Notes: generated by a model not told the origin, from the sequence alone. Counted from the stretch's first letter, positions 1 through 10,377 are shown. The stretch is 64,000 nucleotides of DNA from Candidatus Hydrogenedentota bacterium (GCA_045863295.1 BTWA01000012.1:1-64000); one strand, 5' to 3'. Made by a program: numbers and translations.

Positions 1-4
1 TTTT

Positions 5-1258
5 GTGTTGGGACTGCTTTGCGGCGAAATGGCCGTGGGCGCGGGGGGATATTTGGTTGCCTATGCTGTGTTCATGGAGAAAGGTACGTGGCGCGACAGA
101 GCATTAACCATTGTACCCTATCTGTTCATGGGCGTTATTTGGTACATCCCTTACAAATTGGGGGGGTACGGGGCTTCCGGCACGGCATGGTATTGCGATC
201 CTGCCGAAGACCCTTTGGAGTTCGCAGGGCGGGTCTTCATCAATTTGCCGTTTCTTCTAACCAACACGCTTTTTGATTGGCCTTACGTACTTGCTGGAAT
301 TCCCCATTTCAAGATTTGGGCTCCTGTGCTTTGCTACTCGCTCATTGGCGGTACCGTGTTTCTTTGCTGGCCCATGTTCAAGCAGGAACCGGTAATGCGC
401 TTTTTCGCACTGGGGATGGTTCTGTGCCTTTTTCCCACACTCTCCATTTTTGTCCAACCGCGAGTGACCATCCTCGGCACAGTGGGCGGTATGGCGTTGG
501 TGGCAATGTACATCCGTCGTTGGTACGTCGGAGTTGCTGTTTCCGATGACGCCTCCAAAGTGCGCCGCTTCGCCGCCGCTTCGTTGGCAATTGTGTGGAT
601 TCTCCTTCATGGAGTTGTTGGTCCGGTGAACCTGTTTGCCATGAGCGGGCTAAAAGGTGCAGTCGCAAACCGAATGTTTGACACGATCGCCTCCATACCG
701 GCGGACGAAGCCGTCAAAGACAAAGACGTAGTCATTCTCAACACGCAGACGGATTACACGACTTGGTTAATGACGATTATGCGCGCCGCGAATGGGGTCC
801 CACTTCCCAAGACTTATCGAATGCTTAAGGCAGGTACCAAGCCGGGAGATGTGGAGCGCCGAAACGAAACAACGCTGGTGATGCATGCACCCGAGGGGTT
901 TACGTATGTCGAGAATTCCAGCGTCTATCGATCGGCGAAATATACCTTTTTGCCGGGGGATACCATTACACTGGATGGCATGACCGTTCGTATCGAAGAA
1001 GTCAATGAAGAAGGCTGGCCCACTCGGGTGGCGTTTGAGTTTGATAGTCCTCTTGACGATCCAAAGCGCCTTTTCATGTGTGCCATGCCCAAGGATCTGA
1101 TCATTGAGCGTATTGGAAGGACGATGAAAGTGGTCCGGTTCGTGACAGTGCCGTTGCCGGCAATCGGGGAACGCGTACCAATCACCGAGATTCTAAATCG
1201 CAGCCCTGAATACCATGAGAACCTTGCAAATCCGGAAGTACTGCGGCGATCGAGGTAA
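5..1258 (+). CDS. Multi-pass membrane protein with C-terminal soluble domain (5' truncated by the window edge; possibly GT-C-like)
   Basis: 417-aa ORF running from the window edge; several hydrophobic segments followed by a soluble domain; no diagnostic motif recognised. Confidence 0.6.
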   Translation: MLGLLCGEMAVGAGGYLVAYAVFMEKGTWRDRALTIVPYLFMGVIWYIPYKLGGYGASGTAWYCDPAEDPLEFAGRVFINLPFLLTNTLFDWPYVLAGIPHFKIWAPVLCYSLIGGTVFLCWPMFKQEPVMRFFALGMVLCLFPTLSIFVQPRVTILGTVGGMALVAMYIRRWYVGVAVSDDASKVRRFAAASLAIVWILLHGVVGPVNLFAMSGLKGAVANRMFDTIASIPADEAVKDKDVVILNTQTDYTTWLMTIMRAANGVPLPKTYRMLKAGTKPGDVERRNETTLVMHAPEGFTYVENSSVYRSAKYTFLPGDTITLDGMTVRIEEVNEEGWPTRVAFEFDSPLDDPKRLFMCAMPKDLIIERIGRTMKVVRFVTVPLPAIGERVPITEILNRSPEYHENLANPEVLRRSR

Positions 1259-1265
1259 CGCGGCC

Positions 1266-1287
1266 CGGCCTGTGCTCGGCCAGGCCG
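1266..1287. terminator. GC-rich hairpin between convergent genes
   Basis: CGGCCTG(1266-1272)-N8-CAGGCCG(1281-1287); no U-tract. Confidence 0.3.
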
Positions 1288-1314
1288 CGGTGGTTCGCCA
1301 TGTATATCTCAATT

Positions 1315-1419
1315 TCAGCCAAAGATATCGAAAATGTAGAAGAGTGCGGAGAGAAACTCATCCACATCCAATCCGAAGATGGCCGTGACCAGTCCCAGAA
1401 TAATCAGCAGAACTTCCAT
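1315..1419 (-). CDS. 34-aa hydrophobic small protein MEVLLIILGLVTAIFGLDVDEFLSALFYIFDIFG (below the ORF-track cutoff)
   Basis: ATG at 1419, TGA at 1315-1317, AAGGAG RBS 7 nt upstream (1427-1432); fills an otherwise empty intergenic gap. Confidence 0.6.
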   Translation of the reverse strand: MEVLLIILGLVTAIFGLDVDEFLSALFYIFDIFG

Positions 1420-1582
1420 CGTATTACTCCTTGCAAGTTGGAAACCACTCCTCCATATCCAGACGGTTCCTATTCAATTCTTATTCACTGGCCCCAATTG
1501 AATTGGAAACCCCGGATTGATTAGCGTCTAGGTCGCGGCCGATGCGCACTCCGGTAATCAACGTCACCGGCGGAAAACCCAT

Positions 1583-2773
1583 ATGGAACGAACGTACACC
1601 TATTATAAACGAGCCACCGAAGGGCATGTCATGCCATTTGCGTTCGTCGATTTGGATTTATTCGACCGTAATATACGCGACATACAGGCAAGAGCGAATG
1701 GAAAGTCTGTTCGCGTCGCATCCAAGTCAATCCGGTCGGTGCCATTGATTGAGCGAATTTTGCAAGCTGATTCTACTTTTAAGGGGATTATGGCGTATTC
1801 CGTGCGGGAGGCAGTCTTTCTCAGTCACTCCGGTCTGGACGATATCCTGGTGGCTTACCCAGCTATGCGTGAAGTGCAAGGTTCTGGCGTACTTGACGAA
1901 ATGCGCCGGGGCAAGCAAATCGTACTCATGATTGACAGCGAAGAGCATGTCCATTTTCTCGACCGGTGCGGGCGCGAGATGGATGTGCAAATACCGGTTT
2001 GCATGGATTTGGATATGTCCACCGAGTTTCCGGGACTGCACTTTGGAGTCTGGCGATCCCCGGTACGGTCCGCGAGACTTGCGGCGGGACTCACACAAGT
2101 GGTCAAACGATGTGACTACGTACGACTTGATGGATTAATGGGATACGAGGCACAAATCGCGGGCCTACCCGATAACGCGCCGAGTCAGTTGCTCAAAAAC
2201 ACAATAGTCAGGTTCATGAAATCCAGATCTATACGGGAGATCCGGCGGCGAAGGGCAGATTCAGTGAAAGCCATTTCAGACAATGGCGTGAAGCTACGAT
2301 TTGTAAATGGCGGGGGAACCGGCAGTGTGGAGTCTACCTCGCAGGAATCTGATGTGACGGAAGTTGCCGTCGGGTCCGGCTTCTTCTCTCCGGTCCTTTT
2401 CGATTGGTATCGTGGTTTTAAGCATCATCCGGCGGCCGGCTTCGCCATTGAAATCACGCGCAAGCCGACACAGGGCCTTTTCACATGCTCTGGAGGGGGG
2501 TATGTCGCCTCCGGGCCCATTGGAAAAGAAAAATTACCTTGTCCATACCTGCCAGACGGGGCGACTCTCCTGCCATTGGAAGGGGCGGGTGAGGTTCAGA
2601 CCCCGATTCGTTACGCCGGAAAAGAACCCTTGGATCTAGGTGATCCGGTTTTCATGCGATATAGCAAGGCAGGTGAGATGTGCGAACGCTTTAATTCGTT
2701 GTTACTTATTGCGAAAGGGGAAGTTGTGGACGAAGTGCCTACTTATCGTGGCGAAGGCCAGTTCTTCATTTAA
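1583..2773 (+). CDS. PLP-dependent alanine-racemase-fold enzyme (D-serine deaminase / D-threonine aldolase-like)
   Basis: RVASKSIR (PLP lysine), GLMGYEAQIAG, NGGGTGS, EVAVGSG, KAGEMCERF motifs. Confidence 0.85.
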   Translation: MERTYTYYKRATEGHVMPFAFVDLDLFDRNIRDIQARANGKSVRVASKSIRSVPLIERILQADSTFKGIMAYSVREAVFLSHSGLDDILVAYPAMREVQGSGVLDEMRRGKQIVLMIDSEEHVHFLDRCGREMDVQIPVCMDLDMSTEFPGLHFGVWRSPVRSARLAAGLTQVVKRCDYVRLDGLMGYEAQIAGLPDNAPSQLLKNTIVRFMKSRSIREIRRRRADSVKAISDNGVKLRFVNGGGTGSVESTSQESDVTEVAVGSGFFSPVLFDWYRGFKHHPAAGFAIEITRKPTQGLFTCSGGGYVASGPIGKEKLPCPYLPDGATLLPLEGAGEVQTPIRYAGKEPLDLGDPVFMRYSKAGEMCERFNSLLLIAKGEVVDEVPTYRGEGQFFI

Positions 2774-2802
2774 TTGGTTCCTTATGAGCACCGTTTCTTA
2801 AT

Positions 2803-2831
2803 TTGCTTCCTATTAACCTATATGTTAATAT
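2803..2831 (+). promoter_or_regulatory. Sigma70-type promoter with a perfect palindromic operator TATTAAC-N6-GTTAATA (2811-2830)
   Basis: TTGCTT (2803-2808), 17-nt spacer, TG-n-TAATAT (-10 at 2826-2831); the inverted repeat fills the spacer and overlaps -10. Confidence 0.65.
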
Positions 2832-2871
2832 CGACTTGTGTCCTCTGCAAAAGTTGCCACTGGAGATGACC

Positions 2872-3264
2872 ATGCAATCCTCTTTCGCACACAGTCCGGA
2901 ATCGACGCCAACGTTCGCGGGCGATATGAATCCGCTGGCATCCGTTGTAAACTCCGAGATCCGTAGGCGGTTGAAGTCTCTAGGTTTTAGTCAAGAGGAC
3001 TTAGCTACACGACTCGGTGTATCGGCGGCTCGGGTATCCAAATTGTTGGGTGACCACAACAACATCACGCTCAAGACAATGGCGGCCATTGCTTCGGCAC
3101 TTGATGCCCACTGGACAGGAATTGGGTTGACGCCGGATGAATTGGCTGACGATTCGGAATTCGAACACATGATGGAGCGCCGGGCAGTCCGCTCCGACGC
3201 GTCGGACTCCTGGTCTCGCAGCGGAAAGGAAGGTCATGTCATCGACTTCTGCGCTGCAGCTTAA
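2872..3264 (+). CDS. XRE/Cro-family HTH regulator (HigA-like antitoxin type) with an extended C-terminal tail
   Basis: LKSLGFSQEDLATRLGVSAARVSKLLGDHNNITLKTMAAIASALD is a classic XRE HTH; GGAG RBS before ATG 2872; tail ends VIDFCAAA. Confidence 0.85.
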   Translation: MQSSFAHSPESTPTFAGDMNPLASVVNSEIRRRLKSLGFSQEDLATRLGVSAARVSKLLGDHNNITLKTMAAIASALDAHWTGIGLTPDELADDSEFEHMMERRAVRSDASDSWSRSGKEGHVIDFCAAA

Positions 3265-3688
3265 GGCGTGCCGCATACGCGAGTTCGTATTGAGTAGCCT
3301 CCCGGCAGAGGCGGGGGCCAATTTTCAATTGTCGTTCAGCGTACGTCGTCGCCGGAATGAGAATGTGTTCAAAATACCGTTGGTTTTACAGGTTCAGATC
3401 AAAGAACCACACGTATGCCTTGTACGGCTCTCACTGGACGCCGTTTTTATTCTTCCCAAGGACTATTCAGAAGAAGAAATACGGCAATACGTGCCCGGCG
3501 TTTGTCTGGCCAATCTTTATAGCATGGCTCGCGGAATTGTGGCACAGTCGAGCGGCATGTTTGAAGGTGGTCCGTTTCTGTTGCCAGTCGTTAATATGAA
3601 TGAATTACTGAAATCATCGGTCGAAGAAATGGCGCCGCCCGAGGTGGCTGTTGGTCGGGTAGAATCGGGCAAACCCCGCATGCAGTGA
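3236..3688 (+). CDS. SecB-like chaperone
   Basis: 150 aa; N-terminal LQLKACRIREF strand and C-terminal LANLYSMARGIVAQ..GPFLLPVVNM resemble the SecB LFPYAR...PLxLxPINF signature; overlaps the HTH gene by 29 nt. Confidence 0.75.
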   Translation: MSSTSALQLKACRIREFVLSSLPAEAGANFQLSFSVRRRRNENVFKIPLVLQVQIKEPHVCLVRLSLDAVFILPKDYSEEEIRQYVPGVCLANLYSMARGIVAQSSGMFEGGPFLLPVVNMNELLKSSVEEMAPPEVAVGRVESGKPRMQ

Positions 3689-3750
3689 ATCGAATGCCCC
3701 AAGTCGATGGATGGCGTGCGGCCTTTACGATATCAGGAGTATGAGTATCT

Positions 3751-6501
3751 GTGGTTACCTCAATGTTGAATCGCATCTTTGGCACGGACAACGAACGCCG
3801 TGTAAAAAAGCTTCTCCCCACGCTGCAACGAGTACGCGATTTCGAACGGGAATACGTAAAGAAGACGGATTCCGAATTACGAGCGCTTACGGGCGATTTC
3901 AAAGAGCGGATTAGCCAGGGCGCTTCCCTCGATGATGTTCTTCCGGAAGCCTATGCGGCGGTATCCGAAGCGGCAAAACGTGTGGCCGGGATGAGACCAT
4001 TTGATGTTCAGATTATCGGTGGCATGGTGCTTCATCAGGGCTGCATCGCCGAAATGGTGACCGGCGAAGGCAAGACACTCGTGGCCACATTGCCCGTATA
4101 TTTGAATGCGCTATCCGGCAAAGGCGTACATGTTATTACGGTCAACGATTACCTGGCTCGCCGCGACAGGGAATGGATGGGTCCGATCTATGAGTTTCTT
4201 GGACTCTCCGTCGGTTTGATCCAGCATCACATGGAAGGTCCTGAGAAGCAAGTTGGATACCGTGCTGATCTTACATACGGTACAAACAGCGAAATGGGAT
4301 TCGACTATTTGCGCGATAACATGGCGACGCACATCTCGCACCGGCTTCAGCGGGAATTGAACTTTGCCATTGTCGACGAGATCGACTCAATTCTCATTGA
4401 CGAAGCGCGAACCCCGCTCATTATTTCGGGCCGGCCCATGAAGAATACAGAGTTGTACTACAAAGTCGACGAAGCGGTGCGCAAGATCCGCAAAGAAGCG
4501 GACTACGAACTGGATGAAAAAGGCCGTCACGTTATGCTCACCGAAGACGGCATGGAAAATGTGGAGCGGCTGCTGGGCGTCGACAATCTCTATGTGCAGG
4601 ATTCGCTGGCGATTGTACACATGGTGGAGCAGGCTTTGCGTGCCCACAATTTTTACAAGAAGGACGACGAGTATGTCGTACGCAATGGCCAGGTGATGCT
4701 TGTCGATGAGTTTACCGGCAGAATAATGGAAGGCCGGAGGTTGAGCGACGGGTTGCATCAGGCGATTGAAGCCAAGGAACGAGTTCCGGTTCACTACGAG
4801 ACCCAGACCATTGCAAGCATTACTTACCAGAACTATTTCCGTCTCTACAACAAATTGGCGGGGATGACCGGTACGGCGGCAACCGAAGCGTCAGAGTTTC
4901 TTGCGATATACGGGTTGGAGGTTGTGCAGATACCCACGAACTTACCACTAGTGCGCGCTGATCTTAACGATCTTATCTTTGCCACGGAGAATGGCAAATT
5001 CAACCACGTTATCCGGGAAATAGAGGAATTTCACAACGCGGGCCGACCTGTATTGGTGGGCACGGTTTCCATTGAGAAATCAGAACGCGTAGCGGAACTC
5101 TTGAAGGAACGTGGGATTAGTGAGTTTGAGGTGCTCAATGCCAAATACCACGAACGGGAAGCGGCGATTATCGCCAACGCCGGCAAGCGTAAGGCAATTA
5201 CGATAGCGACCAACATGGCCGGTCGCGGAACCGATATCAAACTCGGTGAGGGCGTACGTGAATTGGGTGGATTGGCCGTCATTGGCACGGAGCGGCATGA
5301 ATCGAGGCGCATCGACAACCAATTGCGTGGACGATGCGGCCGGCAGGGCGATCCCGGCACTACACGATTTTACGTGAGCCTTGAGGATGAAGTAGCCCGA
5401 TTGTTTGGGGGCGACAAGGTCAAGCGTATGCTCGAATGGTTCGGAAGTCAGGAAGAAATGGATGAAGAGCCATTGAGCCAGCGAATGGTCCATCGTTCGA
5501 TTGAGCGCGCACAACGCCAGGTGGAAATGCACAACTTTGAAATCCGAAAGCACGTCAAAGAGTACGACGACGTGATGGACCGCCAACGCAAAATCATCTA
5601 CGAAACGCGAAAGTCGGTACTTGAAGATCGGGACGTGACCGAGCAGATGCATGCCCGTTTCGAGGGCATAATCGCGGACCTAGTGGATGAATATGCTGCT
5701 GACGACAAGATGCCCGATGAATGGGATTTGGACGGTTTGGTCAGCCGGTTCAAACACACGTTTGGGTTCGAACCCAACGTAAGCGGTGAAGGAGAAGGCG
5801 AGCCCAAGCCGCTCGTGGATGATTTGTTCGATCAGGTTCACACAGAGTACATACGCCGCGAAAGGGCCATCCAGGAGGAAATCCGGGCCAGTTTTCGCGA
5901 GCAAGTCGGAGGCGACGAGTCTCGTATCGACTTTGCGAAGATGGCGCGAAAGCAGATGCACAGTTTCGAAATGATGACACTATTGAAAGCGGTGGACGAT
6001 CGTTGGATTGAGCATCTCTATACAATGGATTACTTACGTGAATCCGTCCGGCTTCGGGCATTCGGACAAAAGGATCCCCTGGTCGAGTACAAGACTGAAG
6101 CATTTGACCTGTTTACTGACATGATGCGAAATATCGACGAGAACGTTGTTCAGACCCTGTTTCGGCTTACCGACCCCGAGGTGTGGAAAGCCCGGCGTTT
6201 GCAGGCGCGACAAGGTGTACAAGGCACACGGGAAGATCCGATTGCCCAATTCAGCAACTATTCCATGGTAGGAGCAGATAAGGAACAGGATCGCAGCTTT
6301 GCGGCATTTGACACAAGCAAATTCAACCTTGCGGGCGGGTCCGCATTGGCCAAGGCGAACGAAGAGGATGGCGAGAGCCGCTCCGAGCAAAAGCCGAAGC
6401 AGCTGCCCGTCAGGAATATGACACCGACGGTCAAACCCAACGATCCGTGTCCATGCGGCAGCGGGAAGAAGTACAAGAAGTGTTGCGGCGCCATGTCTTA
6501 A
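3751..6501 (+). CDS. secA: Preprotein translocase ATPase SecA
   Basis: AEMVTGEGKT, VDEIDSILIDEARTPLIISG, IATNMAGRGTDI, RRIDNQLRGRCGRQGDPG and C-terminal SEC-C PNDPCPCGSGKKYKKCC. Confidence 0.99.
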   Translation: MVTSMLNRIFGTDNERRVKKLLPTLQRVRDFEREYVKKTDSELRALTGDFKERISQGASLDDVLPEAYAAVSEAAKRVAGMRPFDVQIIGGMVLHQGCIAEMVTGEGKTLVATLPVYLNALSGKGVHVITVNDYLARRDREWMGPIYEFLGLSVGLIQHHMEGPEKQVGYRADLTYGTNSEMGFDYLRDNMATHISHRLQRELNFAIVDEIDSILIDEARTPLIISGRPMKNTELYYKVDEAVRKIRKEADYELDEKGRHVMLTEDGMENVERLLGVDNLYVQDSLAIVHMVEQALRAHNFYKKDDEYVVRNGQVMLVDEFTGRIMEGRRLSDGLHQAIEAKERVPVHYETQTIASITYQNYFRLYNKLAGMTGTAATEASEFLAIYGLEVVQIPTNLPLVRADLNDLIFATENGKFNHVIREIEEFHNAGRPVLVGTVSIEKSERVAELLKERGISEFEVLNAKYHEREAAIIANAGKRKAITIATNMAGRGTDIKLGEGVRELGGLAVIGTERHESRRIDNQLRGRCGRQGDPGTTRFYVSLEDEVARLFGGDKVKRMLEWFGSQEEMDEEPLSQRMVHRSIERAQRQVEMHNFEIRKHVKEYDDVMDRQRKIIYETRKSVLEDRDVTEQMHARFEGIIADLVDEYAADDKMPDEWDLDGLVSRFKHTFGFEPNVSGEGEGEPKPLVDDLFDQVHTEYIRRERAIQEEIRASFREQVGGDESRIDFAKMARKQMHSFEMMTLLKAVDDRWIEHLYTMDYLRESVRLRAFGQKDPLVEYKTEAFDLFTDMMRNIDENVVQTLFRLTDPEVWKARRLQARQGVQGTREDPIAQFSNYSMVGADKEQDRSFAAFDTSKFNLAGGSALAKANEEDGESRSEQKPKQLPVRNMTPTVKPNDPCPCGSGKKYKKCCGAMS

Positions 6502-7967
6502 AGATAGCCTGCACGGGTATAACACTGTTTTGGCTTGCCATGATGGGCCTCCTGGTCTACCGGGAGGCATTTGTTCCTCGCATCAAGGCTGGGGATCTTG
6601 CTGCTTCCACGTATCGCGATGAGCCTTCCGAACAATGGCTGGGGGTCTATCTGGCCGAGCGGCGGATTGGTTATGTAAATCTTCGCAGTTACCCTGTCGT
6701 CCAAGGGGGAGTTTCGGGAACCAGCATGTCGATGACCGCCAACCTCGCGATCGATGTATTGCAACAAGGCGGTGATATGGACATGAGGGGAAGTGCTTGG
6801 ATCGCGCGTGACACAGGCTTACGTGACATCTCTTTTCAGATGACATCCGCAGGCCAACGAATTTCCCTGAGGGGCGAGGTTGTCAAGGGCGTCCTGAAGG
6901 GAGCAGTCGAAATGGCCGGTGAGACAATGCCGGTGGAGTGGCCCGTGGGTAAGGACGTCATGCTTTGGAATAATATGGGTGTCTCCGCGCTGTCCATGCC
7001 GGTCATCGAAGTGGGAGAGGAGTATGTTGTGAGCATGGTCGATCCCTTGACTTTGAGCGCAGGCGATGCGCGAATTCGCTGCGTGGCGGAATCGGCCATG
7101 GAATTCGAAGGAGAATCCATCACCGTTCGCGAAATGACCATTGATATGAACGGGAACGAATCTCGGGCCTGGGTGAATTTGGAAGGTGAAGTTCAACGGA
7201 TTGAGACCGGCATGGGCTTAACATTACAGCGAACGACAGCGGATGCATTGTTTGCTGAAAAGAATGCCGACACTGGCGATATAACCCCCAACGAAATCAT
7301 GGCCATACACCCTAGTGGTAAGACTCCCTTCGAAGGGGCGCGGCGAATGCGAGTCCGATTAAGCGGTCATCGTCTGGATCAAGAAATCCCGCGGGACACG
7401 ACGCAGACAATCAAGGACGATGGGCTGGAAATTATTGTACCGGACGCAATGGATTTTGGCGGTGCGAGTGTGAATCCGAAATTGTATGAAGCTTACTTAT
7501 CTCCGGGAGCGTTTATTCAATCCAACGATCCGGCGATTAGGGAACAGGCGAGAGCCATCGTGGGAAAAGAATCGGATTCATGGAAGCAGGTTTCTCTGTT
7601 GTATACCTGGGTCTTCGAAAATATCGACAAGATACCGGCGCTAAGTATACCTTCAGCGACTGAAGTGCTTGCGTCTCGTCGGGGTGACTGTAACGAGCAT
7701 ACCGTACTTTTTACGGCGCTAGCGCGGTCTCTCGGTATTCCCACACGCATTGCCATAGGTTTGATGTGGGGTGAAGATGGCAAGTGCTTTTATTATCATG
7801 CTTGGCCTGAGGTGTTCATGGACAAGTGGATTTGGGTCGATCCCACGTATGGTCAGCTTATTGCCGACGCAACGCATATCAAGCTATTGAATGGAGATAT
7901 TGAGGCTTGGCCCCGGTTAATAGGATTCGTAGGCGGGCTGAAGATCGAGGTCCTTGAGGTCGAATGA
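6447..7967 (+). CDS. N-anchored transglutaminase-like (cysteine protease fold) protein; true start probably near 6480, overlapping the secA end
   Basis: N-terminal TM segment; catalytic triad motifs GDCNEH, HAWPE, WVDPT. Confidence 0.85.
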   Translation: MSMRQREEVQEVLRRHVLKIACTGITLFWLAMMGLLVYREAFVPRIKAGDLAASTYRDEPSEQWLGVYLAERRIGYVNLRSYPVVQGGVSGTSMSMTANLAIDVLQQGGDMDMRGSAWIARDTGLRDISFQMTSAGQRISLRGEVVKGVLKGAVEMAGETMPVEWPVGKDVMLWNNMGVSALSMPVIEVGEEYVVSMVDPLTLSAGDARIRCVAESAMEFEGESITVREMTIDMNGNESRAWVNLEGEVQRIETGMGLTLQRTTADALFAEKNADTGDITPNEIMAIHPSGKTPFEGARRMRVRLSGHRLDQEIPRDTTQTIKDDGLEIIVPDAMDFGGASVNPKLYEAYLSPGAFIQSNDPAIREQARAIVGKESDSWKQVSLLYTWVFENIDKIPALSIPSATEVLASRRGDCNEHTVLFTALARSLGIPTRIAIGLMWGEDGKCFYYHAWPEVFMDKWIWVDPTYGQLIADATHIKLLNGDIEAWPRLIGFVGGLKIEVLEVE

Positions 7968-8692
7968 TAGAAATTCAGAATCTTACCAAACGATTCGGCG
8001 CCAAAGTCGCCGTGGATTCCCTGAATCTCTCTGTTGATCGAGGAGAGTTTTTTTGTTTTTTGGGCCCAAACGGCGCAGGTAAGACAACAACCATAAAGAT
8101 GCTGACAGGGTTACTTAAGCCTAGTGACGGCATTGCGATGCTGGGTGGCGTTGACATTCAGCGTGAGCCCGTGGCCGCAAAATCATTGTTGGGATATGTT
8201 CCCGATACTCCGTTCCTCTATGAAAAACTTACGGGACGCGAGTTCATGCGATTTGTTGCTGGACTGTATCAATTGCCTCAGGAAGTCTTGAATGGAACGT
8301 GCGAGCACCTGCTAGAGCTTTTTGAGGTGCGGCATGTGGGCGACCAGTTGATAGAACACTATAGTCACGGTATGCGGCAAAAACTTTCCTTTGCGGCCTG
8401 TTTCTTGCATGAACCCAAGATAGTGATAGTAGACGAACCCTGGGTCGGACTGGATCCCAAGAATATCCGTTTCGTCAAAGACTATCTGAAAAAGAGAACG
8501 AATGAAGGGTTGACCGTCTTTATGTCTACCCATTCTCTGTCGGTGATTGAAGATGTAGCCGATCGCATCGGAATTATTTATAACGGAAAGCTTCGCCATA
8601 CGGGCACATTGAAGGAAATCCTGGCCCTTTCCAGAAACCCCGGATCGTTGGAGGATGTTTTTCTCGAACTGACGCGGGACGACGCGGAATGA
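7964..8692 (+). CDS. ABC transporter ATP-binding protein (ABC-2/CcmA-like)
   Basis: GPNGAGKTT, YSHGMRQK, IVDEP, STH; ATGA overlap with the upstream gene. Confidence 0.95.
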   Translation: MIEIQNLTKRFGAKVAVDSLNLSVDRGEFFCFLGPNGAGKTTTIKMLTGLLKPSDGIAMLGGVDIQREPVAAKSLLGYVPDTPFLYEKLTGREFMRFVAGLYQLPQEVLNGTCEHLLELFEVRHVGDQLIEHYSHGMRQKLSFAACFLHEPKIVIVDEPWVGLDPKNIRFVKDYLKKRTNEGLTVFMSTHSLSVIEDVADRIGIIYNGKLRHTGTLKEILALSRNPGSLEDVFLELTRDDAE

Positions 8693-10377
8693 CTCGGATC
8701 GGCACGGTAATCTGGGCAAAACACCGAATGGCCGTGCAGCAAGTATTGTCGGTCCGAAATGAGTCAAAACTTAAAGTAGCTGTGGTTTCGGTGTCTGCAT
8801 TTATGCTTTGGGCCGGTGCTTTTGTAGCGTTCTATGCTGGATTTGCTTGGTTGATATCCTATGGTCAGGATCCCACATTGGGATTGAGTATCGGTTCCAT
8901 TATCATGACAAGGCTGCTGTCAGTATTTGCGCTTGCCCTGTTTTTCATGCTTCTTTTTTCGAACGTCTTGATTGCTTTCTCCACGCTGTACAAGTCACGC
9001 GAAGTGCCCTATCTATTGCATACCCCGCTTACGTTCTGGGAATTCTTCTTGGCGCGATTTGCCGAATGTGTGGTTTTCAGTTCCTGGGCATCGGCTTTTT
9101 TGGGGTCTCCGCTCATTTTGGCGTATGGCCTGGTTATCGATGCTCCTGTGGCATTCTACATTGCCGCACTCGCTTTTTATCTGCCCTACGTTACAATTCC
9201 CGCGGCGCTCGGTGCGATTGTTGCGATTCTCCTCGTGCGCATTTTCCCGAAATTACCTCGCAGCAGTATGGTTGGCGCGGCTATGATAGCTTCCTTTTTC
9301 ATGTTCTTGTATCTTCGAACGGTGCTCCGGGAATTGTCCGGCGCGGAAGCGAGTATGGCGAGCATTCTGGAAGCTTTGAATCGAACGCAGTCGAGTTGGA
9401 TGCCAAGTTATTGGGCCGCTAGTGGTGTGCTTGCGACGACTCAAGGAGAGTATGGGCAAGCCCTGTATCACTTCGGACTGCTGCTTTCAAATGCACTGTT
9501 CCTAGTTCTGTTTGCTGCGATTCTGGCGCAACGCATCTATTATCCTGGCTGGTCTGCATTGCTGGGACACGGCGATTCCAAGAGACCGCCGGGCCGGGGT
9601 TGGCTCAGCAGTATTGATCGGCTCTTCTTGCTATTGCGCGATCCTGTGCGATCATTAGTGATCAAAGACGTTCGACTTTTTTGGCGCGATCCTGTGCAAT
9701 GGTCTCAGTTTATCATTTTCTTTGGAATCATGGCAGTGTACATAGCAAGTTTGCGCACCCGTTCTGGTACTTACAGCAGCGAGGCGTTTCGAAATTGGGT
9801 AGTTTGCGTGAACATGGGTGCGTGTACTCTAATACTGGCGACTTTGACAAGCCGATTTGTGTTTCCTTTGATTAGCTTGGAAGGAAGGCGTTTTTGGATT
9901 ATTGGTTTGGCTCCTTTGACGTTTAAGACCTTGGTACTTCAGAAATTCTGGCTGAGCGTGCTCACAGCCTCTGTTTTTACAGTTACGCTTGTCATAATCT
10001 CATGCATGAGTTTGCGTGTGGAGCCTCTCGTGTTCGCGTTGTCCTTGTACACCATTATCATTACCAACTTTGCTTTGTCCGGTCTTGCTGTTGGGCTGGG
10101 AAGTCTTTACCCAAACTTCCAGGAGGATAACCCCGCTCGCATCGTGTCTGGTATGGGGGGAACGCTGAATTTGCTATTGAGCATGGCCTATATTGCCATC
10201 GTAATCGGGGCGCAGACATTTATCCTTCAGTGGAGGGCATTGGGTTTTTATGCGGATGTGCGGGCATTCTGGTTTGCACTGGGCGCCGTGCTCACGCTTG
10301 TTACCGCGCTAAGCGTACTGTGCACGTTCGTGCCCATGCGATTGGGTCTGAAGAATCTGACCCGGGCCGAGTATTGA
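8689..10377 (+). CDS. Putative ABC-2 type permease subunit (many TM helices)
   Basis: Highly hydrophobic, KDVRLFWRDP and FPLISLEGRRFW motifs, ATGA-coupled to the ATPase. Confidence 0.85.
   Translation: MTRIGTVIWAKHRMAVQQVLSVRNESKLKVAVVSVSAFMLWAGAFVAFYAGFAWLISYGQDPTLGLSIGSIIMTRLLSVFALALFFMLLFSNVLIAFSTLYKSREVPYLLHTPLTFWEFFLARFAECVVFSSWASAFLGSPLILAYGLVIDAPVAFYIAALAFYLPYVTIPAALGAIVAILLVRIFPKLPRSSMVGAAMIASFFMFLYLRTVLRELSGAEASMASILEALNRTQSSWMPSYWAASGVLATTQGEYGQALYHFGLLLSNALFLVLFAAILAQRIYYPGWSALLGHGDSKRPPGRGWLSSIDRLFLLLRDPVRSLVIKDVRLFWRDPVQWSQFIIFFGIMAVYIASLRTRSGTYSSEAFRNWVVCVNMGACTLILATLTSRFVFPLISLEGRRFWIIGLAPLTFKTLVLQKFWLSVLTASVFTVTLVIISCMSLRVEPLVFALSLYTIIITNFALSGLAVGLGSLYPNFQEDNPARIVSGMGGTLNLLLSMAYIAIVIGAQTFILQWRALGFYADVRAFWFALGAVLTLVTALSVLCTFVPMRLGLKNLTRAEY

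Follow-up and report, generated by a model that had tools for sequence, protein, structure and literature searches.

A toxin-less antitoxin-chaperone pair directly upstream of secA in an uncultured sludge bacterium, probably left over from a toxin-antitoxin-chaperone operon

We have analysed a stretch of 64,000 nucleotides (nt) from one uncultured sludge bacterium, Candidatus Hydrogenedentota (GCA_045863295.1, BTWA01000012.1:1-64000; hereafter the window), in which an antitoxin gene and a SecB-like chaperone gene, without any toxin, stand directly 5' of secA, the essential gene of the secretion motor. The explanation that we hold to be fairly probable is that this antitoxin-chaperone (AC) pair has survived intact as a self-regulating remnant, and that transcription from it probably continues into secA as a consequence of where it lies. 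The pair would be what is left of a horizontally acquired toxin-antitoxin-chaperone (TAC) operon of the Gp49/HigB type, in which the toxin gene was deleted in place while the promoter with its operator, the antitoxin tail, the frame-shifted overlap of the two genes and the intact chaperone survived. By homology with studied TACs, an antitoxin dimer would bind the TAAC-N6-GTTA operator that lies over the -10 element and repress its own promoter, and the chaperone would bind the tail and shield the antitoxin from the ClpXP-type proteolysis that its Ala-Ala end would invite. Without a toxin, this regulatory loop would control itself only. A lineage-specific rearrangement would have put the module before secA and removed the motif that precedes secA in relatives, and transcripts from the AC promoter, or from a pyridoxal-phosphate (PLP) enzyme gene further upstream, would probably continue into secA, as a positional by-product and not as a conserved, selected circuit.

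The elements of the locus are as follows.

2803..2808, + strand: -35-like hexamer TTGCTT, separated by 5 nt from the operator and by 17 nt from the -10-like hexamer
2814..2827, no strand assigned: putative operator TAACCTATATGTTA, of the class TAACY-N4-NGTTA, core of a 10+10 inverted repeat at 2811-2830
2823..2831, + strand: extended -10-like element TGTTAATAT (TAATAT preceded by TG and one base), which overlaps the operator's right arm
2836..2865, + strand: remnant of 30 nt at the toxin position, beginning with a TTG at 2836 that is in frame with the antitoxin ATG
2866..3264, + strand: gene of the XRE-family helix-turn-helix (HTH) antitoxin, 132 residues, with an alternative start at 2872 behind a GGAG at 2862-2865
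3127..3261, + strand: putative ChAD tail with its Ala-Ala end, the disordered C-terminus of the antitoxin
3236..3264, + strand: dual-coding overlap of 29 nt, antitoxin end and chaperone start
3236..3688, + strand: gene of the TAC-type SecB-fold chaperone, 150 residues
3689..3750, + strand: spacer of 62 nt before secA, with an AGGAG at 3736-3740
3751..6501, + strand: secA, GTG start, with a C-terminal SEC-C zinc motif
1583-2773: gene of the PLP-type (Ala_racemase_N) enzyme, ending 92 nt before the HTH ATG at 2866

An initial annotation of the stretch had already described the module as a toxin-less derivative of a TAC, and each of the parts on which that description relied is found: a SecB fold, an XRE protein with a disordered tail ending in Ala-Ala, an overlap between the two genes, a promoter with an operator, and the lack of a toxin. 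The fold of the 3236-3688 product had been set beforehand as a test, and it came out clearly. A model built from 71 homologues has a confidence (pLDDT) of 90.8, and all 23 matches that it finds in the PDB at E <= 0.001 (Foldseek) are SecB or SecB-like proteins, with TM-scores of 0.5-0.7, among them E. coli SecB, H. influenzae SecB and M. tuberculosis Rv1957. At the level of sequence the signal is weak, with a match to the Pfam SecB family (PF02556) at E 0.005 and 17.1 bits, under the 26-bit cut-off, and 17.5 bits against a cut-off of 143 for the NCBIfam SecB model NF004392; of the 71 homologues, 29 match PF02556. Searched against PDB sequences, the family profile picks up H. influenzae SecB (1fx3) at E 0.007 over nearly its whole length, and the window protein is matched at E 2.6e-6 by PD-T4-9_C, PADLOC's model for the chaperone of CmdTAC. 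Six of the seven invariant or near-invariant residues of the family are kept, the seventh having changed from T to S. The protein is 27-44% identical to TAC chaperones, and its nearest non-self relative among 1.84 billion representative proteins is 43% identical. A word-indexed homologue search returned only the protein itself, and 197 pattern matches from a metagenome scan with it included none encoding a relative.

The protein encoded by the first gene is an XRE-type DNA-binding protein (PF01381 HTH_3, E 1.7e-10, 41.2 bits against a cut-off of 23), and in this respect the name given to it initially, 'HigA-like XRE', stands; the HigA part is not supported, as the HigA family TIGR02607 scores 25.2 bits against a cut-off of 47.7. 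The cut-off of the Y4mF/HipB-type family is likewise missed (30 versus 72 bits). In an AlphaFold2 model made from 13 sequences the HTH core is confident (block-mean pLDDT 81-96 over residues 21-90), residues 97-110 form a low-confidence helix and residues 112-132 fall below 50. In a comparison with the PDB, nothing matches this model at E <= 0.001. The best hit has E 1.6e-3, and the first ranks are taken by restriction-modification controller proteins, with HipB and ClgR also present and P. vulgaris HigA at rank 50, a general XRE/Cro-type picture. The closest parallel is the antitoxin of a complete Gp49-type TAC in another genome (G019), which is 49% identical over 79 residues (E 5e-22). The low-complexity tail of about 45 residues (~88-132) bears the aromatic residues that had been noted, F99, W116 and F128, and ends in C-A-A-A. 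Such a small-aliphatic pair at a free C-terminus fits an ssrA-like ClpX degron, a role that we predict here from the residues themselves, and Ala-Ala ends are found in 11 of the 17 antitoxins of related loci, whose tails are not alignable. Co-folding of four chaperone copies with antitoxin residues 84-132 scored 0.14, against a mark of 0.32, and weighs neither way on binding.

The two genes overlap, as had been reported, and the arrangement of the 29 nt involved turns out to be conserved. The codons GCA GCT TAA (Ala-Ala-stop) are read a second time, in the +1 frame, as the chaperone's N-terminal L-Q-L-K, and in 13 of 17 loci the antitoxin stop codon is embedded in the L-[KEDN] codons of the chaperone, preceded by Ala-Ala in 10 of the 13. 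In those 10 loci the Ala-Ala end and the chaperone's (L/V/M)-Q/R-L share the nucleotides GCRGCTTRA; these observations concern, besides 3236-3264 of the window, the antitoxin/chaperone junctions of L004-L006, L040, L044-L050, L052, L055 and L059. The putative degron and the first chaperone strand are thus coupled by dual coding, as read from the codons, across different antitoxin families.

Upstream of the antitoxin, the operator had been called perfect, which is true of its 5-bp arms, TTAAC and GTTAA, separated by a 6-nt spacer; the full 10+10 repeat is 90% complementary. On the two strands of the window together there is a single copy of the 14-mer TAACCTATATGTTA. The -10-like hexamer TAATAT lies at 2826-2831 with a TG upstream of it, and the element to which it belongs is the only match to TGnTAnn[AT]T found 5' of secA on the + strand of positions 1-9000. 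The -35-like TTGCTT has 3/6 matches to the consensus, under the threshold of a consensus promoter scan that found nothing between 2600 and 3760. Among 12 Gp49-type TACs the operator class occurs exactly, 18-24 nt before the toxin ATG, in six (shuffle mean 0.03), and with <=1 mismatch in eight (shuffle mean 0.43). In four complete TACs (L004, L053, L054 and L059) a TTGAC-type hexamer stands 5 nt before the motif and, in a reading made by eye, a -10-like hexamer starts in the motif's last two bases. The layout of the window promoter, with its -35, 5 nt, a 14-nt operator and an overlapping -10, is the layout of these four. The inverted repeat over the promoter is a homologue, by its sequence and its position, of the operators found in six of the 12 complete TACs, and marks a putative autoregulated promoter of the type II toxin-antitoxin (TA) kind.

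What these operators precede elsewhere, and what is missing here, is the toxin. We sought relatives of the chaperone by searching 134 further genomes of the phylum with a profile, and by scanning a set with one genome for each species as well as metagenomes, these two scans using a narrower chaperone alignment. A SecB-like gene was found in 11 of the 134 genomes, two further loci came from the one-genome-per-species scan, seven from the metagenome scan and one from contig C15 of the bacterium's own genome. All 18 related loci that could be assessed have the order toxin-position open reading frame (ORF), antitoxin, chaperone, three more being cut by a contig end; of the 18, 10 lie in other genomes of the phylum, one elsewhere in the own genome, two on genome contigs and five on metagenome contigs, and two near-duplicate pairs are included. 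With the near-duplicates L056 and L061 left out, a Pfam scan assigned the 16 distinct toxin-position ORFs to Gp49 (PF05973; 11, nine of them over the cut-off), to DUF4258 (two) and, weakly, to HicA (one), with two belonging to no family. Among the assessed loci the window is alone in having no toxin. The claim that there was none, and no room for one, has held up: tblastn with 12 TAC toxins returned nothing below E 0.05 in the window, only hits at chance level, and the own genome, 96% complete, has no match to the Gp49 family better than E 0.98. A complete TAC of this subfamily has its toxin gene upstream of the antitoxin in the operon, and here the PLP gene and the antitoxin are no more than 92 nt apart (the figure of 98 bp given initially is correct when counted from the ATG at 2872).

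The way in which the toxin was lost can, we think, be traced. The AC promoter with its operator is now 34 nt from the antitoxin start codon, and the TTG at 2836 stands 8 nt after the operator, where the toxin ATG stands 4-10 nt after it in the six TACs with the exact motif. The 30-nt stretch that begins with this TTG may be an in-frame deletion scar. Because the toxin-proximal layout of operator and promoter is kept and only 30 nt remain at the toxin position, the simplest reading would be that the toxin gene was removed in place, by a deletion of some 350-450 nt that joined the promoter to the antitoxin.

The pair thus has the attributes of the AC systems already known: it is homologous to the pairs of complete TACs, it keeps their gene order and overlap, and the toxin is absent. 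PMC3581621 (Sala et al. 2013) counts 49 complete TACs and 11 toxin-less AC systems, 11 out of 60, and proposes that AC pairs either neutralise toxins encoded at other sites of the genome or are what remains once a toxin is lost. Its AC systems resemble ours in having a DNA-binding antitoxin followed by an overlapping SecB-like gene, homologous to the pairs of complete TACs, with the toxin absent, and also in a sporadic distribution that resembles horizontal transfer; they differ in that the deletion in the window is traceable, the ancestral operator and promoter abutting the antitoxin, and in that the pair stands 62 nt before secA. Toxin-less pairs have then been known since 2013, and what is new here is the traceable deletion and the adjacency to secA. 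Our full-text searches of the literature found no paper describing an AC or SecB-like module tied to secA; the parts of PMC3581621 considered here, together with one of its supplements, hold no secA neighbourhood, and that supplement does not contain the word 'translocase' either.

The first of the two roles proposed for AC pairs in PMC3581621 would make the pair an orphan that neutralises Gp49-type toxins arriving with phages or plasmids, or encoded elsewhere. In its favour, another complete TAC, different in type, is encoded in the own genome at C15 132.8-134.1 kb (L002 665-1911), made of a DUF4258 toxin of 109 residues, an antitoxin of 170 residues ending in IHAA and a SecB-like chaperone of 140 residues. 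Its toxin is unrelated to Gp49, and its antitoxin is 17% identical to that of the window (in a 5-sequence alignment). Neither a toxin of the Gp49 family nor a second copy of the HTH protein is found in the 96%-complete genome, and we regard such an immunity role as highly improbable.

Other related loci give some idea of how these modules travel. Three Gp49-type TACs from different genomes (L043/L006, L044 and L047) have the same flanking genes: upstream, a protein ending in ...LRKLAFAKEVPAP..., and directly downstream a large protein with a conserved ...RDWQPTYSHEDGDLVDLFFLPALSC... near its start, which runs into a helicase-like part. That three genomes share the same flanks suggests that this TAC rides in a larger mobile or defence element.

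The other question raised by the locus concerns secA itself. The gene is identified by its NF009538 score (1089.6 bits) and by the SEC-C motif (PF02810, E 7e-9); its start is the GTG at 3751, behind the AGGAG, by homology with the N-termini of relatives, and it has one match in its own genome, as a single-copy gene would. As had been reported, it follows the chaperone gene after 62 bp, in the same direction and with no terminator-like site predicted within 2776-3751. No unusual RNA fold was found in either intergenic region (z-scores -0.03 for the 62-nt spacer and -0.22 for the other). Identical short contigs from other sludge metagenome studies span each of the three junctions (PLP/HTH, HTH/SecB-like and SecB-like/secA), so that the layout is not an artefact of assembly; these contigs come from four other studies, are short and near-identical, and confirm the junctions while adding no evolutionary depth. 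The only difference in the module across the four studies is at position 3284, where one low-depth contig (2.85x) has a C for T, changing F17 of the SecB-like protein to L, which may be an error. Third-position GC content and codon usage of both module genes are host-like, within about one standard deviation of the long ORFs of the window. Beyond secA, a transglutaminase-like gene, of which the longest ORF (6447-7967) overlaps the secA end by 55 nt (6447-6501), probably has its true start later than 6447; secA and the ABC-transporter genes that come after it run in one direction and are tightly packed.

We compared the secA neighbourhood with that of 29 relatives, all from other genera, the nearest having a SecA N-terminus 73% identical. 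None of the 29 has an HTH, SecB-like or PLP gene within ~1.3-1.5 kb 5' of secA, where at least 17 have instead a divergent membrane-protein gene. The PLP gene is present in 10 of 30 relatives and never adjoins secA. Conversely, the DNA fetched around 21 other SecB-like loci never contains secA. The position of the module before secA is unique among the genomes searched, and the linkage is lineage-specific in the sense of being absent from other genera; it is not necessarily recent, because the genomes compared are all outside the genus.

In 22 of the 29 relatives secA is preceded by a promoter-like motif, TG[CTG]TA[TGC][CG]AT (shuffle mean 0.35, maximum 3). We see it as CTYTG-n-TAT-[CG]-AT, 48-155 nt before secA (L009-L037); in many cases a palindromic partner (TAGCA or TAACA, for example) follows some 10 nt further on, and the motif may represent an extended -10 promoter with either an operator or a 5' hairpin, peculiar to secA within this order. 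The motif is absent from 3503-3762 of the window (the 260 nt upstream of position 3763), and its strict form TGYTATSAT has one match in the window, inside a gene and at chance level. The orthologue of the relatives' divergent secA neighbour lies on another contig of the own genome (G000:C50:1-1616; L062), 326 nt from the contig end; the motif is absent from these 326 nt too, and a TTGACA stands 10 nt before the contig stops. At exactly that point, then, the ancestral neighbourhood of secA is interrupted, in the genome or in the assembly. It seems that secA has lost its usual upstream signal and is now behind the AC promoter. With the relatives' motif missing and no extended -10-like site upstream, within positions 1-9000, other than the AC promoter, read-through into secA is plausible, if unproven.

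The initial annotation had proposed that the pair was domesticated as a secretion-load sensor. In that scheme preproteins would titrate the chaperone, the repressor would be degraded through its Ala-Ala end and the promoter derepressed, giving more chaperone and more SecA. The idea has antecedents: titration of a TAC chaperone by preproteins, as a 'sentinel of protein export', was proposed in 2014 in PMC4257090, and the mechanism of the annotation is this published idea with derepression of secA in the place of toxin activation. Several features are compatible with it. The genes are co-directional, with a 62-nt gap and no predicted terminator; the motif of relatives is missing and the AC promoter is the sole extended -10-like site 5' of secA; both ORFs are intact, with host-like codon usage; the genome has no canonical SecB; and TAC and AC chaperones, when overexpressed, can replace E. 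coli SecB (PMC3581621, PMC5105189). The survey of XRE-secB-secA synteny that had been named as a check went the other way, since no relative has the module beside secA and every assessable homologous module carries an ORF at the toxin position, and the claim of domestication is left without support: the linkage occurs in a single genome of those searched. Because no relative of the chaperone above 43% identity was found, neither selection on the arrangement nor its conservation can be shown. SecB docks onto the zinc finger of SecA through an acidic cluster (D20, E24 and E77 in E. coli; PMC6377645), and in a low-identity profile alignment with 1fx3, tentative as such, these positions map to E16, S20 and R64 of the chaperone, one acidic residue out of three. 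By a rough estimate, with TACs carried by ~8% of genomes in this sample of the phylum (11/134) and ~1/5 of the published systems toxin-less (11/60), chance could well have placed one such pair next to secA among ~200,000 species. Since no other genome searched has the link to secA, a dedicated secretion sensor is possible but unsupported. We consider it quite unlikely, and grade no higher the related proposal that a disarmed TAC, promoter-proximal in the secA unit after loss of the ancestral secA promoter, would now act as a transcriptional feedback on secretion load, in which a protease-labile, chaperone-dependent repressor would make transcription of chaperone and SecA follow the occupancy of the chaperone by unfolded preproteins.

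A simpler role for the chaperone, in which it would bring preproteins to SecA as the organism's SecB, with the HTH protein merely as its regulator, draws on some of the same observations. There is no canonical SecB in the genome, where the two sub-threshold PF02556 matches are both TAC-type; the gene adjoins secA; and the zinc motif SEC-C, to which SecB docks in proteobacteria (PMC6377645), is retained in this SecA. The AC chaperone of M. smegmatis, SmegB, replaces E. coli SecB and complements secB mutants (PMC3581621). On the other side, 123 of 134 relatives do without any match to such a gene, and the docking cluster is not conserved in the chaperone. The SEC-C motif itself is widespread in bacteria that have no SecB. 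We think this role very unlikely.

The pair could also be inert, an unused relic. In that case secA would have its own, unrecognised promoter, either within the SecB-like gene or shortly downstream of it. TA modules commonly decay once the toxin is lost, and complete TACs are sporadic in the group (11/134). A weak TG-n-AATCAT string is present at 3607-3615, ~140 nt before secA, and in L009, L020 and L026 the relatives' motif lies at a similar distance, 130-155 nt upstream. But the 3607 string is unlike that motif, both ORFs are full length and keep their overlap and the family-conserved residues, and the operator is intact save for one arm mismatch that is also seen in complete TACs. This makes an inert relic unlikely in our view.

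Comparison with characterised systems helps to place the remnant that we favour. The HigB1-HigA1-SecB(TA) system of M. tuberculosis (Rv1955-Rv1957) also pairs an XRE antitoxin bearing a C-terminal extension with a SecB-fold chaperone, whose fold (5mtw) matches that of the window at a Foldseek E of ~1e-6. The HigA1 extension binds the SecB-fold tetramer and ends in Val-Ala, where the window antitoxin ends in Ala-Ala and the binding is predicted; according to PMC8165232, the site bound by the chaperone and a Val-Ala ClpX degron both lie in the HigA1 ChAD tail. Neither of the two chaperones conserves the acidic cluster for SecA docking. The M. tuberculosis system differs in having its toxin, and the proteins are distant, Rv1957 being 16-18% identical in a structural alignment and the tails not alignable. 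CmdTAC (PD-T4-9) resembles the window in its chaperone, through the PD-T4-9_C match, and in that CmdA also ends in Ala-Ala; according to bioRxiv 10.1101/2024.02.24.581848, changing this end to Asp-Asp abolishes ClpXP dependence. CmdTAC and the HigBAC of E. coli differ from the window pair in being three-gene defence systems triggered by phage structural proteins; the window pair cannot abort infection, because its toxin is absent. In E. coli, SecM raises secA expression in response to export status through translation arrest and unfolding of the mRNA within one transcript. The likeness to the window is only one of concept, an upstream product that reports export, as the route proposed for the window is transcriptional; neither an arrest peptide nor a SecM-like structure was seen in the window (fold z-score -0.03).

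Some observations weigh against taking the pair as a remnant whose position before secA is accidental. Both ORFs are intact and keep family-conserved residues, which a retained function, possibly with a selected role, would explain just as well as a recent deletion. An essential, single-copy secA on an autorepressed promoter would be odd unless this were tolerated or useful. The comparison spans other genera only, so that it sets no bound on the age of the linkage. Finally, the activity of the AC promoter and its read-through into secA are predicted from sequence, and the binding of the tail by the chaperone and of the operator by the antitoxin are suggested by homology.

If the pair survives by position only, it offers a clean natural case of the disarming of a TAC, in which the toxin was excised exactly between operator and antitoxin. 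If read-through is true, an essential housekeeping gene would have become dependent on a promoter that once belonged to a selfish element and that is predicted to respond to chaperone load and to ClpXP activity, and the locus would be a simple system for the long-standing, unproven idea that the SecB-like chaperones of TACs monitor export. Should the sensor itself prove true, the 'sentinel of protein export' would gain a case with a direct, non-toxic output. Two by-products of this work may find wider use: the conserved promoter-like motif before secA in this order, and the dual-coded overlap of Ala-Ala-stop with L-Q-L that links the degron to the first strand of the chaperone.

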